NCBI GenBank assembly: GCA_963726195.1
Contig: CAVSBO010000010.1
Span: forward strand, 32,001 to 96,000
Source of the DNA: Candidatus Thorarchaeota archaeon
GTDB lineage: Archaea; Asgardarchaeota; Thorarchaeia; Thorarchaeales; Thorarchaeaceae
Length of the DNA stretch: 64,000 bases
Reading direction: 5' to 3'
Numbering within the stretch: position 1 is the first letter of the stretch; each line of letters starts with the position of its first letter. Shown in pieces: positions 2 through 53,693 of this stretch. Both the position numbers and the translations under genes were made by a program. The notes beneath the pieces are model-generated. The model ran no database searches. It saw nothing but the letters and a program-made list of their open reading frames with translations, and was not told the DNA's origin.

Positions 2-361
2 GAGCTCAAGGATATCATAGAGAAATCCGATTTCATAACACTACATGTTCCAATGGTACCCGCGACAAAAGGTATGATTGGCGAGAAGGAACTTGGTCGT
101 ATGAAGAAGACCGCCTACATAATCAACACCTCTCGTGGTGGGATTGTCGATGAAGCGGCTCTTCTAAAGGCACTCGACGCAGGAACAATCGCAGGCGCAG
201 GTTTGGACGTGTATGTAGATGAGCCACCTAAGGACTGGAAGCTAGTGAAGCATCCAAAGGTCGTGGCAACGCCCCATATCGCATCATCTACGCTCGAGGC
301 TCAGAGCAGGATAGGAGAACTGACCGTCGACAAAGTCATTGCAGAGTTCGTCAAGAAATAG
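2..361 (+). CDS. D-isomer 2-hydroxyacid dehydrogenase (phosphoglycerate dehydrogenase-like), 5' truncated by window
   Basis: SDFITLHVP, INTSRGGIVDE, GLDVY..EP, TPHIAS motifs. Confidence 0.85.
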   Translation, partial: ELKDIIEKSDFITLHVPMVPATKGMIGEKELGRMKKTAYIINTSRGGIVDEAALLKALDAGTIAGAGLDVYVDEPPKDWKLVKHPKVVATPHIASSTLEAQSRIGELTVDKVIAEFVKK

Positions 362-426
362 GGCACGGCAGTAAACGAATCCGTCTAGTTCAATCGCTAC
401 ATCTTTAAGTGAAATCTATGGGAGAA

Positions 427-524
427 ACGTGGTCGAGTTGGCGGAGAAGCCAAGGATCTCGACCACGTCATTCCTTTGTGTTGGCGGATACGTCCGCATG
501 GGATGTGGCCCTAGGGGCTGAACC
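427..524 (+). ncRNA. Structured 5' leader of rpl15e (eL15 r-leader-like)
   Basis: 11-bp stem ACGTGGTCGAG/CTCGACCACGT with inner TTGGC/GCCAA; GCGGA-TACG-TCCGC hairpin; GGGATGTGG-[GCCC/GGGC]-CTGAACC motif just upstream of rpl15e. Confidence 0.6.
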
Positions 525-565
525 TCAAACAAAGAGACTTGATTTACGGCAAAGGAAGCAGTCAG

Positions 566-1147
566 ATGTCAGCATACAAGCACATGAATGAAGCTTGGAT
601 GGAAGAGGAGGAGCAACGCTCCGAGATCATCCGCGACAGGTTCATCGGCTGGAGAAAGCAGGATAGTATCGTAAGGCTGGAACATCCAACAAGACTCGGA
701 CGAGCCCGCTCATTGGGTTTCAAAGCCAAGCAAGGCTACGTTGTCGTAAGAGTCAGGACTGGCCGAGGCCCACGTGAGAGGATTCGACCGAAGGCCGGAC
801 GAAAGCCAAGGCGTATGGGTGTGACCAGATTCACGCCCCAGAAGTCTCGTCGCTGGATTGCTGAAGAGAGAGTAGCACGAAAGTTTCCCAACCTAGAGGT
901 GCTGAACTCTTACTGGGTAGGTCAGGACAACAAGTGGATATGGTATGAGTGCATCTTGGTCGACCCTAATCACCCCGTAATCTACAACGACCCGGCCATA
1001 AACTGGGTGTGTGACCCTGTCCAGAAAGGCAGAGTACACCGCGGGCTCACCTCAGCTGGCAAGAAGAGCAGGGGTTTGCGCAGAAAGGGTAAGGGTGCTG
1101 AGAAGATCAGGCCATCTCTCGCAGCCAGAGGCAATGTTGGTAAGTAG
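566..1147 (+). CDS. rpl15e: 50S ribosomal protein L15e
   Basis: PTRLGRARSLGFKAKQG, LEVLNSYWVGQD, GRVHRGLTSAG. Confidence 0.97.
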   Translation: MSAYKHMNEAWMEEEEQRSEIIRDRFIGWRKQDSIVRLEHPTRLGRARSLGFKAKQGYVVVRVRTGRGPRERIRPKAGRKPRRMGVTRFTPQKSRRWIAEERVARKFPNLEVLNSYWVGQDNKWIWYECILVDPNHPVIYNDPAINWVCDPVQKGRVHRGLTSAGKKSRGLRRKGKGAEKIRPSLAARGNVGK

Positions 1148-1224
1148 ACCTGATTACTCCGTTCAGGTTTTGAAAGGTCAGGGGCTTTAATACCAGTCAA
1201 TACCATAGATGTGCAGACGATAAC

Positions 1225-1275
1225 ACGAGCCTGTCTGATTGGACTGAACGAGCGATGGAGGCCATGAGAACATGA
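1225..1275 (+). pseudogene. tnpA: Collapsed IS607 tnpA remnant (TSLSDWTERAMEAMRT; ATG changed to ACG)
   Basis: Aligns with MKLSDWAERAMEAMRT of copy 2; its stop overlaps the tnpB ATG (ATGA). Confidence 0.65.
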
Positions 1276-2472
1276 AAATCATGCGGGCCTACAAAACAGA
1301 GTTGGACCCCAACAACGTTCAGCGCACAGTCCTGCTCAGACACGCCGGAACAGCAAGATTCGCATACAACTGGGGACTCGCACTGCGGAAGGAAGAGTAC
1401 GAAAGGATGGGAACATCATCGAATGCCATCGAGCTACATCGGCAGTTAAACGCATTGAAGAAGACGAAGTTCGCTTGGATGTACGAGGTTTCCAAATGCG
1501 CCCCGCAGGAAGCCCTCCGAGATCTCGACAGGGCGTACAAGAACTTCTTCGAGGGGCGGGCGGAATACCCAAAATTCAAGCGCAGAAGACTCGGCGCAGG
1601 TAGTTTCAGACTCACAGGATCCATCAGGGTGTTCTGCCACTCGGTGCAATTACCCCGACTCGGCGTGGTTCGACTCAAGGAAGAAGGCTACCTTCCGATT
1701 GGGGGAGTTCACGTCCTGTCGGCGACTGTTTCAGAAAAAGCAGGGAAATGGTTTGTGAGTCTTCAGGTGCAAGATGAGATTGAAGTACCAAATAACACCG
1801 GACCTGTGGCCGGGGTTGATCTTGGTATTTCGAAACTCGCTACAATCAGCGATGGATCCATCATCACGAATCCAAAACCTCTTTCACGCCTCGAGCGAAA
1901 GAACAAGCGAATCCAAAGGTCTCTTGTCAGGAAGGTGAAAGGCAGCAATAACCGAACCAAAACCGTGATACGACTAGCTCGGCACGAACTCAGAATTGCG
2001 AACATCCGCAAAGACGCCCAGCACAAAGCCACAACGATGATGGCGAGAACCAAGTCGGTCATCGGCGTGGAAAGCCTGAACGTGGCTGGACTGCTCAAGA
2101 ACCATCACTTGGCAAAGCAGCTCGCGGATGCAGGCATAGGAGAGTTACTCCGTCAGCTGGAATACAAGACCACATGGAATGGGGGTGCGGTCGTGGAAGC
2201 AGACCCGTTCTTTCCGTCGACAAAACGATGCTCCCAATGCGGAATAGTCAAGGATGAAATGCCGCTCTCTGAGAGAACATACAGGTGCGGGAGTTGCGGT
2301 TTCGAAGTCGACCGCGACTTGAACGCCGCCATGAATCTCAGCTTCAGTCGCCGCCAGTTGGGCGGAGACAGAAAACGCCTGCGAGAATGGAGAGGTTCAT
2401 GCCACAAGAGACAGGTGCTCCATGATGAAGCAGGAACCGAACACTGTTTGGGAGGACGTCCTGAATGGGTGA
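1272..2472 (+). CDS. tnpB: RNA-guided endonuclease TnpB (extra base near 2338 extends the ORF to 2549)
   Basis: N-terminal HTH_OrfB-like region, RuvC GVDLG / GVESL / DRDLNAA, CxxC..CxxC zinc finger. Confidence 0.93.
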
Positions 2473-2926
2473 GTTTCGGACAACGGTTGAGGCCCGAGCC
2501 TACTCACGCGCGACAGAGATTGTCGAAAGGGTCAATGCTGCAGTCCTGAACGTATTTCCCGAGGACCTTCGCAGCAGGGTGCAGATATCCAGTGCGACGA
2601 CGGAAGGGTACAATCAGATACCCATTGTTGTAATTGTTGCGACAATAGAGGACAAGGTATCGAGTGAGATTGCAGTAGATTACCTCCTGAGGGCATTATC
2701 TCCAAACGACAAAGAGATCCTCATCAACACGATAAAGCAGCGTCTGGACGAACGTTGCGTTCTTTTCATTAGACTTGATAAGCAGGCGGCATATCTTGGC
2801 CACCTGCAGTTAGCAACGGAGCCTGATGTCATTAGTATCCAAGTCCATATTCGCCAGTATCCTCGATGTAATCAGGAAAAAGCCATAACATTCATTGAAG
2901 AACGTCTAGTATCTGCGGAGGGGTGA
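2465..2926 (+). CDS. DUF54-family RNA-binding protein; N-terminus MGEFRTT derived from the IS end (original 5' exon-like fragment at 1134-1182)
   Basis: ARAYSRATE, GYNQIPI, LFIRLDKQAAYLG; conserved rpl15e-DUF54-rnp3-rnp2 context. Confidence 0.8.
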   Translation: MGEFRTTVEARAYSRATEIVERVNAAVLNVFPEDLRSRVQISSATTEGYNQIPIVVIVATIEDKVSSEIAVDYLLRALSPNDKEILINTIKQRLDERCVLFIRLDKQAAYLGHLQLATEPDVISIQVHIRQYPRCNQEKAITFIEERLVSAEG

Positions 2927-2929
2927 ATC

Positions 2930-3616
2930 GTGCCTCTGGACCTGAACGTAAGAGTACCCAAGTCTGACAGGCTTACAGATTTCACCCAAATGGCAATCAC
3001 AATAGGCCTGACCGGTTTTGCTGTTCCAATACCACTGAGAAACCCCATAACGAAGACGAACGATGGTATTGTACTGATGACTAGGACAGACCTCGTCGGA
3101 AAGGGAGTGGAATCCATCAAGAAACAGCTGTCACGCATCAGACGACAGACTGCAGTAATCGCAGTGCCTCTGAGCGATATCGAGATCTCAAACTGGGCAG
3201 CGGAGGATTCCAGAGTCGATCTTCTAACTGTCGCAGAACTGTCAAAAGAGAATACCATTCGAGAGAGCACAGCAAAGCTGGCTGCACACAATGGAATCGC
3301 TCTGGAGATTCCTATTGCTCCACTTCTCAGATTCTCCGGGCTCGACAGGTCAAAGGTGTTGAAGGTCTACAGAGAGTCTGTAACAACCGCAATAGGCGCA
3401 GGGATGAAAGTCGTCTTGTCGAGCTTTGCATCCGAACCAATCCTAATGAGAGCGCCATCGGCCATGTGGCACATTGGTATCATCCTTGGCATGGACAAGC
3501 GTCAATCAAGGGAGTGCGTATATCAAGTACCGGATCAAATCCTGAGCCGCTCGGAACAGAAAATGAGGTCTCAGTCATTTGCGCCCGGAATCGAAGTTGT
3601 TCGAGAGGAGGGGTAG
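2930..3616 (+). CDS. rnp3: RNase P protein subunit p30 (Rpp30)
   Basis: NWAAEDSRVDLL, AKLAAHNGIALEI, VVLSSFA..P..MRAP. Confidence 0.85.
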   Translation: MPLDLNVRVPKSDRLTDFTQMAITIGLTGFAVPIPLRNPITKTNDGIVLMTRTDLVGKGVESIKKQLSRIRRQTAVIAVPLSDIEISNWAAEDSRVDLLTVAELSKENTIRESTAKLAAHNGIALEIPIAPLLRFSGLDRSKVLKVYRESVTTAIGAGMKVVLSSFASEPILMRAPSAMWHIGIILGMDKRQSRECVYQVPDQILSRSEQKMRSQSFAPGIEVVREEG

Positions 3617-3618
3617 AA

Positions 3619-3927
3619 ATGCGCAAAATGAGAAGAAGGTATGTTCTGTTTCGCGTGCATAGGGAGGGCCCGCCGATTGACGTACATCAGCTTTCAGCAG
3701 CAATTCGAAAGAACTTACTTTCTCTCTTCGGAGAGGTTTCCGTCGCAGACTCTAGGCTGTTCATAGGTAAATATGACGAGAACGAAGGAACCGGGATAAT
3801 GCAATGTAACGCTGAATCGCTTGACAGGCTTATTGCGTCTGCGTCGCTGATAACTACCATTGACAAGACACAAGTGTCCTTTGAGCCAAAACGAGCCTCA
3901 GGGACGCTGAAAGGTTTGGAACGTTAG
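3619..3927 (+). CDS. rnp2: RNase P subunit Pop5/Rpp14
   Basis: RRRYVLF, LFGE, GIMQC, SGTLKGL. Confidence 0.88.
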   Translation: MRKMRRRYVLFRVHREGPPIDVHQLSAAIRKNLLSLFGEVSVADSRLFIGKYDENEGTGIMQCNAESLDRLIASASLITTIDKTQVSFEPKRASGTLKGLER

Positions 3928-3929
3928 AC

Positions 3930-4343
3930 TCAAACTACAACAAGAGGGACTTCGACCACTTTCGCATCATCAAGCATGAAAGCTCGGCTTTTCCAGCGGC
4001 CTGTTGTCTTAGATGCTATCACCCACACAACCGGGTTGAGATTCATGTTTTGAATATCCCTTTCTGACGGCTTGGGGGGCACAGGATGAGAATGAAATAT
4101 CCCAATCAAATCCTCGCCCAGTGCCTCAGCGTCCTGAAGCAGGCGATACTCGACCATAGGGTCAACTTCGAATGCTACGCTCGATTTCAAAGCATTATCA
4201 ACGGGCTCGACTCTCGTAACCGCGACGATGTCGTGTTCGAGATGACCAAAAAGCAAAGCCGCTGACTCAAGAGGTAGACAACTCTGTGCGTGGCGGAGAA
4301 GCCTGTCCATGTGGACTTTCGATATGCGAATGCCGTCCAACAC
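3930..4343 (-). CDS. JAMM/MPN+ (Mov34, M67) metalloprotease
   Basis: E..ALLFG ... HSHP...PS.RD JAMM motif. Confidence 0.88.
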   Translation of the reverse strand: MLDGIRISKVHMDRLLRHAQSCLPLESAALLFGHLEHDIVAVTRVEPVDNALKSSVAFEVDPMVEYRLLQDAEALGEDLIGIFHSHPVPPKPSERDIQNMNLNPVVWVIASKTTGRWKSRAFMLDDAKVVEVPLVVV

Positions 4344-49535: not shown

Positions 49536-50723
49536 TCAGCCCCCAAATGGATTCCTAGAACGTCTCTTCTCAAGTGCCGTATAGGTCAGACCTGAAAGAG
49601 CCATGAGTCGGTCGATTATGATCTGAGATTCATTATGGCTGATTCTTGCTCTCGCGTCGGCCTCCACGATTGGTGTCGGAATGCCGTACTCCTTGTGCTG
49701 CCAAGAAATGGGCAGTATGGCGGACAAAGCCCTGTCGAGTAGCCGAACATCGTTGCTCCCATCTCCAACAAGGACTTCGATTCGGAGAGGCAAGTCATCC
49801 TGCGCGGTCTTGACGTATGTCACCCATATTCTTGAGGCCCACGAAGACAATTCATCGGGATACGCATTCGGAGTCTGTTGTATTTCTGAGGAGAAACGAA
49901 ACACAAAGGTTCTCTCGCCTTCATCCAGAAATGTATCCAGTATGTCGCAGTCTCTGGATATCTTTAGAAGCCAACGATAGTCAACACCCTGCATCATCTC
50001 AAAGACCGAAGGGTCCCTTATGATATGAGGTAGAATCTCACCCATTATGTTCACGACGCGGCTCGAACGGCTGTCTTTCACCACGCCTACCAAAGTTGTA
50101 CCCTTTTCCTTGGCTCTGTTGTACATTTGCCTGTAGAGTGCCATTACTTCTTGGAACTTGTCATTTGCCACAGAGGCGGCGGGAGGACGGTCGCGAGGAT
50201 GATAGAACAGGCTGCCGTCAATCAGGATTAGGTCTGTGGAGAATTCTTCGAGGACTGACAGGGTCACTCTCAGTTCCGCCGCAAGGCGCTCAAGGGATGC
50301 GAGCTGGTCTAGTTCCTGTCCCGAAAGACTGAGCATTACAGGTTTGATAACGGGGCTCGGAAAGGGATCTGGGAAGAAGTCAACGGTAGGGCCCTCTTTC
50401 GGCCCGAACTTGAATATCACTGCGATGGCACGTGTAAGTATCAGGTCCATTGATCTGAACTCTCTTCGTATGAGTCCTCCGTCGATGCCAGCCATCTTTA
50501 GGCCTGAGAGACTGGTCGGCTGCAGTCTCGTACAGAACTGCGCATCAACCACGTTTTCGGCTACCGAAGGGAAACGTCGCAAGTCTATGCTGCTCTTAAT
50601 CTGTCTGAGAACCTTGCCAAAGCGTTCGCGAGTGATCTCGGCCCGTTCAATTTCCTCCACTAGTGCGGACAGCATCTTGTCAAGATTCCGTTCCACTAGG
50701 TCCGTTGTCCGAAACTCACCCAT
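49536..50723 (-). CDS. nurA: NurA nuclease; N-terminus MGEFRTT derived from the IS end (original start TTG at 52019)
   Basis: GIDGG, LIDGSL, GVVKDS, YGIP.PIVEAD..ARI. Confidence 0.9.
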   Translation of the reverse strand: MGEFRTTDLVERNLDKMLSALVEEIERAEITRERFGKVLRQIKSSIDLRRFPSVAENVVDAQFCTRLQPTSLSGLKMAGIDGGLIRREFRSMDLILTRAIAVIFKFGPKEGPTVDFFPDPFPSPVIKPVMLSLSGQELDQLASLERLAAELRVTLSVLEEFSTDLILIDGSLFYHPRDRPPAASVANDKFQEVMALYRQMYNRAKEKGTTLVGVVKDSRSSRVVNIMGEILPHIIRDPSVFEMMQGVDYRWLLKISRDCDILDTFLDEGERTFVFRFSSEIQQTPNAYPDELSSWASRIWVTYVKTAQDDLPLRIEVLVGDGSNDVRLLDRALSAILPISWQHKEYGIPTPIVEADARARISHNESQIIIDRLMALSGLTYTALEKRRSRNPFGG

Positions 50724-51915
50724 TCAGGACGTCCTCCCTAACAGTGTTCGGTTCCTGCTTCATCATGGAGCACCTGCCTCTTGTGGCATGAACCTCTCCA
50801 TTCTCGCAGGCGTTTTGTGTCTCCGCCCAACTGGCGGCGACTAAAGCTAGATTCATGGCGGCGTTCAGGTCACGGTCGACTTCGAAACCGCAACGCCCGC
50901 ACCTGTGTGTTCTCTGGGAGAGCGGCATCTCATCCTTGACCGCTCCGCAGTCAGAGCATCGTCTTGTGGATGGAAAGAACGGGTCTGTTTCCACGACCGC
51001 ACCCCCATTCCACCTAGTCTTGTATTCCAGCTGACGGAGTAACTCTCCTATGCCTGCATCCGCGAGCTGCTTTGCTAAATGATGGTTCTTCAGCAGTCCA
51101 GCCACGTTCAGGCTTTCCACGCCGATGACCGACTTGGTTCTCGCCAGCATCGTTGTGGCTTTGTGCTGGGCGTCTTTGCGGATATTCGCAACTCTGAATT
51201 CGCACCGAGCCAGCCGCATCACGGTGTCGACTCGGTTGTTGCTTCCTTTCACCTTCCTAGCAAGAGACCTTTGGATTCGCTTCTTCTTTTGCTCGAAGCG
51301 CGAAAGAGGTCTTGGATTCGCGATTGCGGCTCCGTCACTGACAGTAGCAAGTTTCAAAATGCCAACATCGATTCCGGCCACAGGTCCAGTGTTATTCGGG
51401 ACTTCAATCTCCTCCTCCACCCGAAGACTCACAAACCATTTCCCTGCTTTTTCTGAAACAATCGCAGACAGGACATGAACTCCATCAATTGGAAGGTAGC
51501 CTTTTTCCTTAAGCCGAACCACACCGAGTCGGGGCAACTGCACCGAGTCGCAGAAAACCCTGATGTGTCCTGTGAGCTTGAAGCTGCCTACCCCGAGTCT
51601 TCTGCGCTTGAATCCGGGGTATTTCGCGCGCCCCTCGAAGAAGTTCTTGTACGCCCCGTCGAGATCTCGGAGGGCTTCCTGCGGAGCACACTTCGAAACC
51701 TCGTACATCCAAGGGAACTCCGTTTTGTTCAGAGCATTCAACTGCCTGTGCAGCTCGACGGCATTCGATGATGTTCCCATCTTCTCGTACTCTTCCTTCC
51801 GCCGCGCGAGTCCCCAATTGTATGCAAACCTCGCTGTTCCGGCGTGTCTGAGCAAGGCCGTGCACTGGATGTTGTTGGGGTCCAGCTCCGTTTTGTAGGC
51901 CTGCATGATTCTCAT
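50716..51915 (-). CDS. tnpB: RNA-guided endonuclease TnpB, intact
   Basis: RuvC GIDVG / GVESL / DRDLNAA; zinc finger; highly similar to copy 1. Confidence 0.95.
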   Translation of the reverse strand: MRIMQAYKTELDPNNIQCTALLRHAGTARFAYNWGLARRKEEYEKMGTSSNAVELHRQLNALNKTEFPWMYEVSKCAPQEALRDLDGAYKNFFEGRAKYPGFKRRRLGVGSFKLTGHIRVFCDSVQLPRLGVVRLKEKGYLPIDGVHVLSAIVSEKAGKWFVSLRVEEEIEVPNNTGPVAGIDVGILKLATVSDGAAIANPRPLSRFEQKKKRIQRSLARKVKGSNNRVDTVMRLARCEFRVANIRKDAQHKATTMLARTKSVIGVESLNVAGLLKNHHLAKQLADAGIGELLRQLEYKTRWNGGAVVETDPFFPSTRRCSDCGAVKDEMPLSQRTHRCGRCGFEVDRDLNAAMNLALVAASWAETQNACENGEVHATRGRCSMMKQEPNTVREDVLNG

Positions 51916-51962
51916 GTTCTCATGGCCTCCATCGCCCGTTCGGCCCAATCAGACAGCTTCAT
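51912..51962 (-). pseudogene. tnpA: Collapsed IS607 tnpA mini-ORF MKLSDWAERAMEAMRT
   Basis: MKLSDWA resembles the IS607 TnpA N-terminus, joined to a C-terminus-like ERAMEAM; ATGA overlap with tnpB. Confidence 0.7.
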
Positions 51963-52015
51963 GTTATCATGTGCCTGTATGTGGTACTGACTAGTATTAA
52001 GCCCCCTTGACTGTT

Positions 52016-53693
52016 TCAACCCTCCCTCTTGCGCTTGTATTCCAAGGCCGCCTTCAGAAAGGCTACGTATAGAGGATGTGCATTACCCGGTCTCGACTTG
52101 AACTCTGGATGATATTGGACTCCAATCCAGAACGGATGCCGCTTCAGTTCGACTGCATTTATTATCTTCCCGGTCCTATCGTAAGCTGAAATGACCATGC
52201 CTGCATCTTTCATCTTGTGCACATACCTATCAATAAGATGAAACCTATGCCTGAATCTTTCTCGCGTTTCAGTGACGCCATAGATGCTGTGTAGACGAGT
52301 CCCCTCGACAATTCTGATTTCTTGCCCCCCGAGCCTCATGGTACCGCCCTTTTCATCGGTCTGCTTCTGATCATCAAGTAAGTCTACAACTGGATAGAGA
52401 CTGTCAGGGTCAACTTCTGTCGTGTGTGCACCTTGCCAGCCCATTCGTCTTCTTGCGAAAGCTACAATTCCTAGCTGCAGCTCCATAGCAGATTCCGAGA
52501 AATGGAATACCGTCTTCAAAGGCCACCGTGGCTGCATTAATCATTCCTTCTACTCCGCGAGAACCAAACCCGGGTGTCAGAAGTATACCATCGACGTGAT
52601 TAAGGTCTTCTCGCAGACAGTCTTCACTGCATCTCACGTCGGTCTCAATCCATCTTATGTCGACTTTCGCCCCGCACTGTGCGCCAGCATGTAGAAGAGC
52701 CTCATTGATGCTCTTGTATGAGTCGCTCAAAGCAGTGTACTTTCCTGGCATGGCTACTACTACGTTGTCAGTACAACTATCGAAAGCATGGACTATCTGC
52801 TGCCACGAACTAGTTTCGGGCTCACGCGGTTCTAGCCCGAGCAACCTGACGAGGGTATTGCCCAGGCCTTGCTCTTCGAAGGACAAGGGCAATTGATAAA
52901 CTACCGGGATGTCTGGATTTGAAATGACTCGATCCTCGGGAACGTTACAGAATAATGCGATTTTTCCTCGTGCTGAGTCCTGTAGTTTCTGTTCAGCTCT
53001 GCATACTATAATGTCGGGTTGAAGACCTGATCCTTGAAGAGTGCGGACGCTGTGTTGTGTTGGCTTGGTCTTGAATTCACCAACAGCAGCAATGTAAGGT
53101 ACAAGAGTCACATGCACGAGAACAGCTCTTTCCGGTCCAACTTCGCGAATCAGCTGCCTTACCGCCTCTAGGAATGGCATCGCCTCGATGTCACCCACTG
53201 TACCTCCAACTTCCACGAGTAACACATCTGGTTCAGGCTCCTCGTTGGCAACGTCCCATATCCTGCTCTTGATGCAGTCTGTCACATGTGGGATGATCTG
53301 TACAGTGTGGCCCAAGAAACTCCCTTTTCTCTCTCCTAAGATTACCGAGACGTAGATTTGTCCCGATGTTATGTTATGAGACGGATGGATGTCCATGTCC
53401 GTGAATCGTTCATAGGTTCCGAAGTCTTGGTCGATTTCGGTAATCTTGAACTCGAAACCTTCAACAGGTTTGAATACCCAAGTCTTGTCGGTGACAAATA
53501 CCTCACCATGCTCAACAGGGTTGAGCGTCCCAGGGTCAACGTTGAGGTAAGGATCGATCTTGATTATTTGAATCGTGTACCCCCGAAACTGAAGTATCTT
53601 GGCGATTGATGCTGTGGTTACACCCTTTCCGATGCCGGACACAACACCTCCCGTTACAAATACAAATCTCGTGTTATGTTGTTTAGTGTTCAA
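52016..53693 (-). CDS. pyrG: CTP synthase (frameshift near 52485)
   Basis: [45 protein letters not shown]. Confidence 0.95.

Follow-up and report, generated by a model that had tools for sequence, protein, structure and literature searches.

How can a conserved gene stay open when a transposable element sits directly at its start? This question is raised by a locus in a metagenome-assembled genome of a Candidatus Thorarchaeota archaeon (GCA_963726195.1, here G000; 19 contigs, 88.9% complete). The window that we analyzed is a stretch of 64,000 nucleotides (contig CAVSBO010000010.1, positions 32,001 to 96,000; G000:C10:32001-96000), and all coordinates below refer to it unless stated otherwise. 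On its plus strand lie, in this order, rpl15e (ribosomal protein L15e), an element that carries tnpB, a DUF54/COG1325 gene (DUF54 from here on), and the genes for RNase P p30 and Pop5. A preliminary description of this DNA had placed the element between rpl15e and DUF54, upstream of rnp3 and rnp2, and the list of open reading frames (ORFs) and the Pfam matches agree with that placement.

The explanation that we favor, and which as a whole is probably right, has four parts: (i) a tnpA-less element of the IS607 family would have entered the 5' end of DUF54 through GG crossover, in the orientation of the operon; (ii) the native start of the gene, a GGGAG, the ATG and six codons (28 nt), is gone, and the protein would be made only from an ATG at 2465, inside the right end of the element and 9 nt past a GGAGG; (iii) transcription would come by read-through, either from the operon promoter or from the element's own promoter at its left end; and (iv) the in-frame phase would reflect survivorship, with copies that wreck needed genes being lost and most remaining copies sitting harmlessly between genes.

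Borders of the element and the start of DUF54

Alignment of copies and family tests place the element at 1168..2486 on the plus strand (1,319 bp), as one of seven copies in this genome. All copies share a sharp right end, ...GTTTCGGACAACGG, which falls at 2486 here and beyond which the flanks are unrelated. The final two element bases, 2485..2486, are the right crossover GG, recognized by the right-end motif ...GTTTCGG[AG]CAACGG in the seven copies here and in 100 elsewhere. For the left border we examined nine left ends, seven from this genome and one each from G002 and G395. Similarity between copies continues leftward via TTTTGAAAGGTCAGGGG up to a GG at 1166-1167, and a GG sits 17-19 nt ahead of a TTTAATA-like box in nine of nine. 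Bases 1168-1182 (within codons V-L-K-G-Q, 1167-1182) align with the left ends of the other eight copies and are element sequence; the preliminary description had set the border at 1182/1183, 15 nt too far to the right.

An empty site is available for a member of the same family. In G395, a 345-bp derivative lies between ...CCTGGATAG-GG and TCGTTATAG..., and at the same place the close relatives G006 and G394 are empty and read ...CCTGGATAGGGTCGTCATAG... (G006 site, ...GGATAGGGTCGTC...). Empty and filled sites differ by the derivative with one shared GG and without target duplication. Because this comparison has the family start right after a GG, we place the element here at 1168-2486, with the host/element junction at the left crossover GG, 1166..1167. 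This agrees with the GG rule for IS607 elements as given in the available text of Chen et al. 2018 (PMC6188088).

Upstream of this junction, the spacer is colinear with the rpl15e-DUF54 spacer of G002 and L063 over 1146-1167, up to ...TTCAGG, and the gene aligns from TTGAGG onward. Missing in between, compared with genus relatives, are 28 nt that hold the GGGAG ribosome-binding site, the ATG and six codons. In G002, L063, G001, G003 and four more loci this region reads ...TCAGGGAG-N6-ATG-(5 codons)-AGG|GTTGAGG or the like, and the genus relatives together with five further loci follow the pattern N6-ATG TCN TAC TTY GCN NNG | GTT GAG GCC... or a close variant of it. The protein of the genus relatives begins M-[SP]-[YF]-F-x-x directly ahead of VEARAY. 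No remnant of the lost 28 nt was found anywhere in 1000-2700. We also considered whether the native N-terminus had been relocated, and rejected the candidate, since TACTCCGTTCAGGTT is only ~56% identical to the relatives' TACTTCGCCAGGGTT, compared with 75-82% for the colinear spacer alignment (hand counts).

We compared the N-termini of orthologs in 23 family relatives (L017 was left out) and nine further loci. In 15 of the 23 family relatives an ATG precedes [VI]E[AS]R by exactly six codons (M-x-[YFI]-[FIV]-x-x), GTG or TTG takes its place in three, four carry a 12-14-codon extension, and one is unassigned. The preliminary description had supposed that DUF54 began, before the insertion, at ATG 1134, with a ...KGQVEARAY-like N-terminus. 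Neither an ATG overlapping the rpl15e stop nor such an N-terminus occurs in any of the 23 family relatives or the nine further loci, and five of its supposed codons (V-L-K-G-Q) are element sequence; the supposition is not borne out. Two of the DUF54 orthologs, L020 (G006) and L023 (G021), each have one in-frame TAG within the DUF54 match.

The present DUF54 ORF runs from 2465 to 2926 on the plus strand (153 aa). ATG 2465-2467 lies 22 nt inside the right end of the element and is the sole in-frame start that gives a near-full protein, with 153 codons open. Seven element codons, MGEFRTT, replace the native M-S-Y-F-A-R, and host sequence resumes at 2487 (VEARAY...), which is where the match to PF01877 ("RNA binding") begins (residue 8 of the ORF, profile position 2). 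The next in-frame start is a GTG ~38 codons in; it would drop ~37 residues, including the conserved first strand. A GGAGG at 2451..2455 precedes ATG 2465 by 9 nt. As for transcription, the left end carries a TTTAATA box at 1186..1192, kept in nine of nine left ends, which is a putative archaeal TATA box of the element's own promoter. Read-through into DUF54 from rpl15e or from this promoter is plausible, because 1100-4000 has no run of five or more T on the plus strand and no TATA-like box other than the one in the left end.

DUF54 is kept in 24 of 24 family relatives. The host part of the gene (146 codons) is 81% identical to that of G002, with a ratio of non-synonymous to synonymous rates (dN/dS, omega) of 0.20. 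When changes were placed on branches using G002 and L063, the branch of this genome received 12 synonymous and 14 non-synonymous changes, giving an omega of 0.36 (binomial p 0.0099 against neutrality); the other two branches have 0.21 and 0.29. These values point to continued purifying selection on DUF54 and argue against a long-dead gene.

The two junctions of the present arrangement fall where the ancestral sequence has a GG, at TCA-GG-GAG and at CCAG-GG-TTGAGG. Four histories would fit both: (i) deletion first and insertion second; (ii) insertion at the native CCAG-GG-TTGAGG, after which a deletion reached exactly to the left end; (iii) insertion at TCA-GG-GAG, in the ribosome-binding site, after which a deletion reached exactly to the right end; and (iv) two nearby GG insertions, followed by recombination between the copies. 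Present data are equally compatible with all four. A genome of the same species was found neither among 73 metagenome loci (best 81% identity) nor among 39 loci of the genome collection.

Family, nuclease and guide RNA

The element is a member of the IS607 family, which moves by a serine recombinase with crossover at GG; it has lost tnpA and kept tnpB and a guide-RNA end. None of the seven copies in this genome has an intact tnpA. The most diverged copy, L007, has a 74-codon ORF between its left end and tnpB. This remnant matches the tail of NCBIfam transpos_IS607 (NF033518) with E 2.3e-5 and 24 bits, under a cut-off of 110 bits, and is 76-84% identical to ~188-aa PF00239 (Resolvase) proteins, some of which are named IS607 family transposase, e.g. 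in Candidatus Freyarchaeum. Relative to these full-length proteins, it has an in-frame internal deletion of the catalytic domain. Both window copies retain just the first and last few tnpA codons; here, the stub at 1231..1275 (plus strand) consists of LSDW... codons and a serine-recombinase C-terminal tail, with no start codon. In another copy, L002, the stub reads MKLSDWA... plus tail, and the full-length relatives P0001, P0009 and P0022 start MKL[SA]DWARK. These remnants appear to show ancestry and no present gene.

Chen et al. 2018 (PMC6188088), in the text available, describe IS607 elements as targeting GG, with (G)GG preferred, GG at both termini and no target duplication. The present family resembles the IS607/IS1535/ISC1926 elements treated there in its combination of serine-recombinase TnpA (here remnants only) with TnpB, in its GG termini, in its (G)GG target without duplication and in its lack of terminal inverted repeats. 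GG precedes nine of nine left ends, and GGG eight of them. We also searched 400 Asgard genomes for the right-end motif; 33 had it, and a reversed control pattern matched once. The resulting survey set of 107 copies comprises 100 of 101 listed places outside this genome and the seven local copies. With a search pattern that already included the final CGG, GG is retained at 104 of the 107 right ends. A T directly follows the right GG in 67 of 107 copies, and TT in 28 (loci L233-L332 plus the seven local copies), which suggests either a target preference beyond (G)GG or a transposon-associated motif (TAM) of this TnpB. Among 11 inverted pairs found in 1160-2490, none joins the termini. The direct repeats found by repeat listing are not at the element ends; no dedicated search was made for subterminal TnpA-binding motifs.

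The model considered first, an IS200/IS605 element with a TAM, was dropped because the tnpA remnant is of the serine-recombinase type. No common 4-5-nt motif was seen 5' of the left end, and Y1 transposase (PF01797) has no match in this 88.9%-complete genome. Unlike IS607 systems, all seven copies here lack a working tnpA, and they would have to be moved by a transposase in trans or be immobile. The sole IS607-type TnpA gene of the genome is found at L203 (G000:C3:853744-857118, ORF 1306-1932), with a MerR-like N-terminus and no adjacent tnpB. It could serve as a source in trans, but its subtype differs from that of the remnants in the seven copies, whose ancestral N-terminal DNA-binding part is of the MKLSDWARK... 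type.

The tnpB ORF (1272..2549, plus strand, 425 aa) matches Pfam OrfB_IS605, Cas12f TNB and HTH_OrfB. Among NCBIfam TnpB models, it scores 296 bits with guided_TnpB (cut-off 100), and 268 and 309 bits with IS607_TnpB and IS200_TnpB, both under their own cut-offs. Its match to ISDra2 TnpB has E 2e-58. Relative to the other copies, it has an additional C near 2347 that puts the last ~65 residues out of frame, and because of this shift the ORF extends to 2549. The canonical frame would end at TGA 2470-2472, and intact copies have their TGA or TAA stop 3 nt past the ATG position (ATGGGTGA). The motifs GVDLGI (GIDVGI in the other window copy, described below), VESLN, CxxC...CxxC and DRDLNAA are present in both window copies, and the frameshifted tail lies after the last RuvC or zinc-finger motif. 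In the other window copy, the RuvC motifs align with those of an artificial intelligence-designed relative of ISDra2 TnpB in the Protein Data Bank (PDB). We take the three catalytic RuvC residues to be those given by ISDra2 numbering. With the motifs for the RuvC triad and the zinc-finger cysteines kept, the TnpB nuclease looks active.

Folding of ten right ends with RNAalifold gave a conserved structure of 41 pairs, eight of them with compensatory changes. We infer that this structure is a guide-RNA (omegaRNA) scaffold, predicted at 2349..2486 on the plus strand, with a guide that would be taken from about 2487-2506; no Rfam family matches the scaffold. GGAGG 2451..2455 falls in the 5' arm and loop, and ATG 2465 in the 3' arm, of the last predicted hairpin before the border. 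The element is like ISDra2 (IS200/IS605; PDB 8bf8, 8exa, 8h1j) in its RuvC motifs and in a structured RNA that overlaps the 3' end of tnpB and ends at the border, and unlike it in GG crossover by a serine recombinase, as opposed to Y1 peel-and-paste beside a TAM.

In-frame copies, their frequency and the rival explanations

The other copy in the window is a sister, 88% identical, at 50702..52019 on the minus strand between pyrG and nurA (left GG 52021-52020, right GG 50703-50702; site ...AAGAGGGAG-GG | element | GG-ACCTAGTGG). Its left end supplies pyrG with a new stop, GGT TGA, and its right-end ATG is in frame with nurA, with 395 codons open. The nurA start, which aligns with the GTG in CTAGTG, coincides with the end of pyrG or follows it by a few bases in 15 of 15 family relatives. 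That native GTG is kept here at 50696-50694, 5 nt past the right end, and the element separates it from the purine-rich ribosome-binding site of nurA, which is held in the end of pyrG. The preliminary description was right that this copy has the same phase (after the first base of a codon) and orientation as the copy at DUF54; it had put the copy in nurA, but the element sits between the end of pyrG and the native GTG. Both window copies thus part a gene from its ribosome-binding site, both in the ATG frame and neither in mid-gene. Also in this region, pyrG (CTP synthase, 52016-53693, minus strand) carries one base near 52478 that G002 lacks, and this breaks it into two overlapping ORFs (427 and 173 aa).

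From two of two copies in a frame that rescues the gene, the preliminary description had argued for selection or targeting. Its central idea, an insertion at the 5' end of DUF54 whose phase keeps the gene readable, agrees with the sequence. Two of the seven copies in this genome are fused in frame and five are intergenic. Across the survey set, we counted ORFs that cross the right end and have at least 100 codons or are open to a nearby contig end. Crossing ORFs in frames 0, 1 and 2 number 6, 5 and 1, where frame 1 is the ATG frame; the binomial p for an excess in this frame is 0.37, and 0.70 once the two window copies are excluded. Different genomes share identical flanks in three pairs, and the copies are not all independent. 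Most long crossing ORFs have their own start a few codons past the element, and short ATG-frame stretches in L246, L273, L290, L322 and L327 were judged non-coding by eye and not counted as fusions. Selection in the sense of survivorship is plausible, and targeting is not supported, as the ATG frame is not in excess among the 107 right ends; we read the event as an ordinary surviving insertion and not as a targeted one.

A GGAGG and an ATG occur together in four of the 107 copies, and three of these four are in-frame start fusions: those at DUF54, at nurA and at a gene in G395. Among the other 103 copies no such start fusion was identified, with L240 (a HEAT-repeat ORF in the ATG frame) left unassigned. 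The association gives a Fisher p of 2e-5, or 5e-4 if the window pair is counted once, in a post hoc comparison of few and partly related copies. The parallel in G395 is L333 (G395:C151:1-1775), where the element (~275-620, minus strand) has ATAG-GG-TCGT as its site, among the first codons of a conserved gene that follows a thiL-like gene. It is the derivative with the empty counterpart described above, and consists of a left end, a tnpA stub and a guide-RNA end without tnpB; its right end brings GGAGG and an ATG in frame. A transposase with a preference for (G)GG would readily meet its target in ribosome-binding sites. One could go further and propose that the right end of this IS607/TnpB lineage doubles as guide-RNA scaffold and portable translation start (GGAGG, a spacer of 9 nt and an ATG whose frame continues over the GG crossover), with variants that have GGAGG and ATG colonizing the starts of needed genes within operons and with no need of splicing, a generalization that we offer only tentatively and think rather doubtful.

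Several other copies lie close to gene starts. At L003 (G000:C3:802712-806967), the left end is 22 nt upstream of the start codon of a divergent aldehyde-dehydrogenase-like gene, and an antisense frame is open from within the element into that gene. At L281 and L286, both in G151, a gene starts right beside the right end, in both cases outside the ATG frame: a PIN-domain gene has a TTG start 4 nt past the right end, and a metallophosphoesterase gene has TTG/GTG at the border.

A number of points weigh against start donation by the element at DUF54. The use of ATG 2465 as a start is inferred from sequence. GGAGG and ATG lie inside the predicted conserved guide-RNA hairpin, and translation from 2465 would therefore compete with folding and with bound TnpB. 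The GGAGG itself is largely a by-product of the stem and is shared by 13 of 107 copies, mainly intergenic ones. Only 45 of the 107 have an ATG at the position of the start, with TTG in 32 and another codon in the rest, and this codon is simply an overlap with the last tnpB codons. The branch test on DUF54 includes time before the insertion, and a recent death of the gene could be hidden in it. The assembly may hold single-base indel errors, as the extra bases in pyrG and in this tnpB may be either real frameshifts or such errors. A further point is that ATG 1134 is in frame with DUF54 across a precise excision of the element, which has a chance of about one in three under start donation.

The in-frame ATG 1134 is what would be predicted if the order of events underlying the preliminary description held: 28 nt were lost, translation of DUF54 came to begin at ATG 1134, insertion followed at the GG in codon 12, and scarless excision would restore the gene. 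We reproduced the peptide that it had derived by joining 1134-1182 to 2487 onward. With the corrected border, 1134-1167 joined to 2487 onward is likewise open and in frame with ATG 1134, five codons shorter, and, of the three frames upstream, just one contains a start codon and remains open. The ATG at 1134 is peculiar to this genome (G002 reads AATATT at that place), the extensions of the four family relatives noted above start a few bases past rpl15e, which makes the length of such an N-terminus nothing odd, and IS607 excision is scarless according to the accessible text of PMC6188088. Against this order, none of the 32 orthologous loci has an N-terminus of this kind, and the only ribosome-binding-like motif before ATG 1134 is a GAGG 2 nt away. 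Moreover, the left flank is A-GG, compared with G-GG in eight of nine left ends, a preference that the ancestral CCAG-GG-TTGAGG would fit; and a 28-nt deletion of binding site and start would be hard to survive without a replacement already present. We regard this order as unlikely. DUF54 could also have been knocked out, being either a recent pseudogene or dispensable, with the ATG in frame by coincidence. The chance of an in-frame ATG is one in three per copy, the ATG and GGAGG lie within structured RNA, the family as a whole has no frame excess, and DUF54 was not found with this query in four of 16 genomes outside the family. The ORF is nevertheless intact over 146 host codons, its branch omega is significantly below 1, the gene is retained by every family relative, and the two in-frame copies differ by 12%, meaning that at least one is not very young; a knockout seems improbable to us.

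Removal at the RNA level, by a self-splicing or endonuclease-spliced intron of the IStron kind that rejoins 1134-1167 to 2487 onward, would also give an in-frame ORF, and group I intron-fused TnpB elements (IStrons) exist in bacteria, going by the part of 10.1101/2023.11.20.567912 that was available. There are no Rfam matches, including group I and II introns, at E<=1 on either strand of 1000-4200, with no dedicated search made for bulge-helix-bulge motifs, and conserved structure is limited to the guide-RNA region at the right end. The other five copies are intergenic and would gain nothing from splicing, which argues against such a function. We give splicing very little credence. Donation of the start by the element, with its phase due to survivorship, remains the explanation that we prefer.

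Neighboring genes and meaning of the locus

Upstream, rpl15e occupies 539..1147 on the plus strand (Pfam PF00827, E 6.8e-76), with ATG 566 as the likelier start. A short ORF from ATG 1134 (1134..1190, plus strand) overlaps the rpl15e stop, enters the left end of the element and terminates at TAA 1188-1190; host spacer supplies the first 11 codons and the element the remainder. Downstream of DUF54 follow rnp3 (RNase P protein p30, 2930..3616, Pfam PF01876) and rnp2 (Pop5/Rpp14, 3619..3927, Pfam PF01900), both on the plus strand.

Insertion sequences commonly alter the expression of neighboring genes. In a literature search at the level of abstracts, we found no description of a TnpB or IS607 right end acting as the start of the next gene. 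The analysis gives a corrected border and family of the element, a refutation of the proposed ancestral N-terminus and a plausible donation of a start. The element can be compared with IStrons, IS605/IS607-type elements fused to a group I intron, as portrayed in the accessible portions of 10.1101/2023.11.20.567912 and PMC13521648: in both cases a gene would survive a TnpB element located within it or at its start, and one sequence would have to serve both guide RNA and host mRNA, which creates a conflict. Unlike IStrons, the element here has no intron match, and the rescue that we propose is translational, through a donated ribosome-binding site and ATG, not through splicing.

For annotation, the locus implies that genes of this kind receive wrong starts, that such an element is easily misfiled as IS200/IS605, and that IS607-type borders belong at the GG and not where similarity appears to fade. 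For the biology of the archaeon, it offers a case at base resolution in which a TnpB element heads a conserved gene in an Asgard housekeeping operon without visible destruction. If ATG 2465 is used, the same 40 bases would be guide-RNA scaffold for TnpB and initiation site for the ribosome, which, if true, would mirror at the level of translation the intron/guide-RNA conflict described for IStrons.

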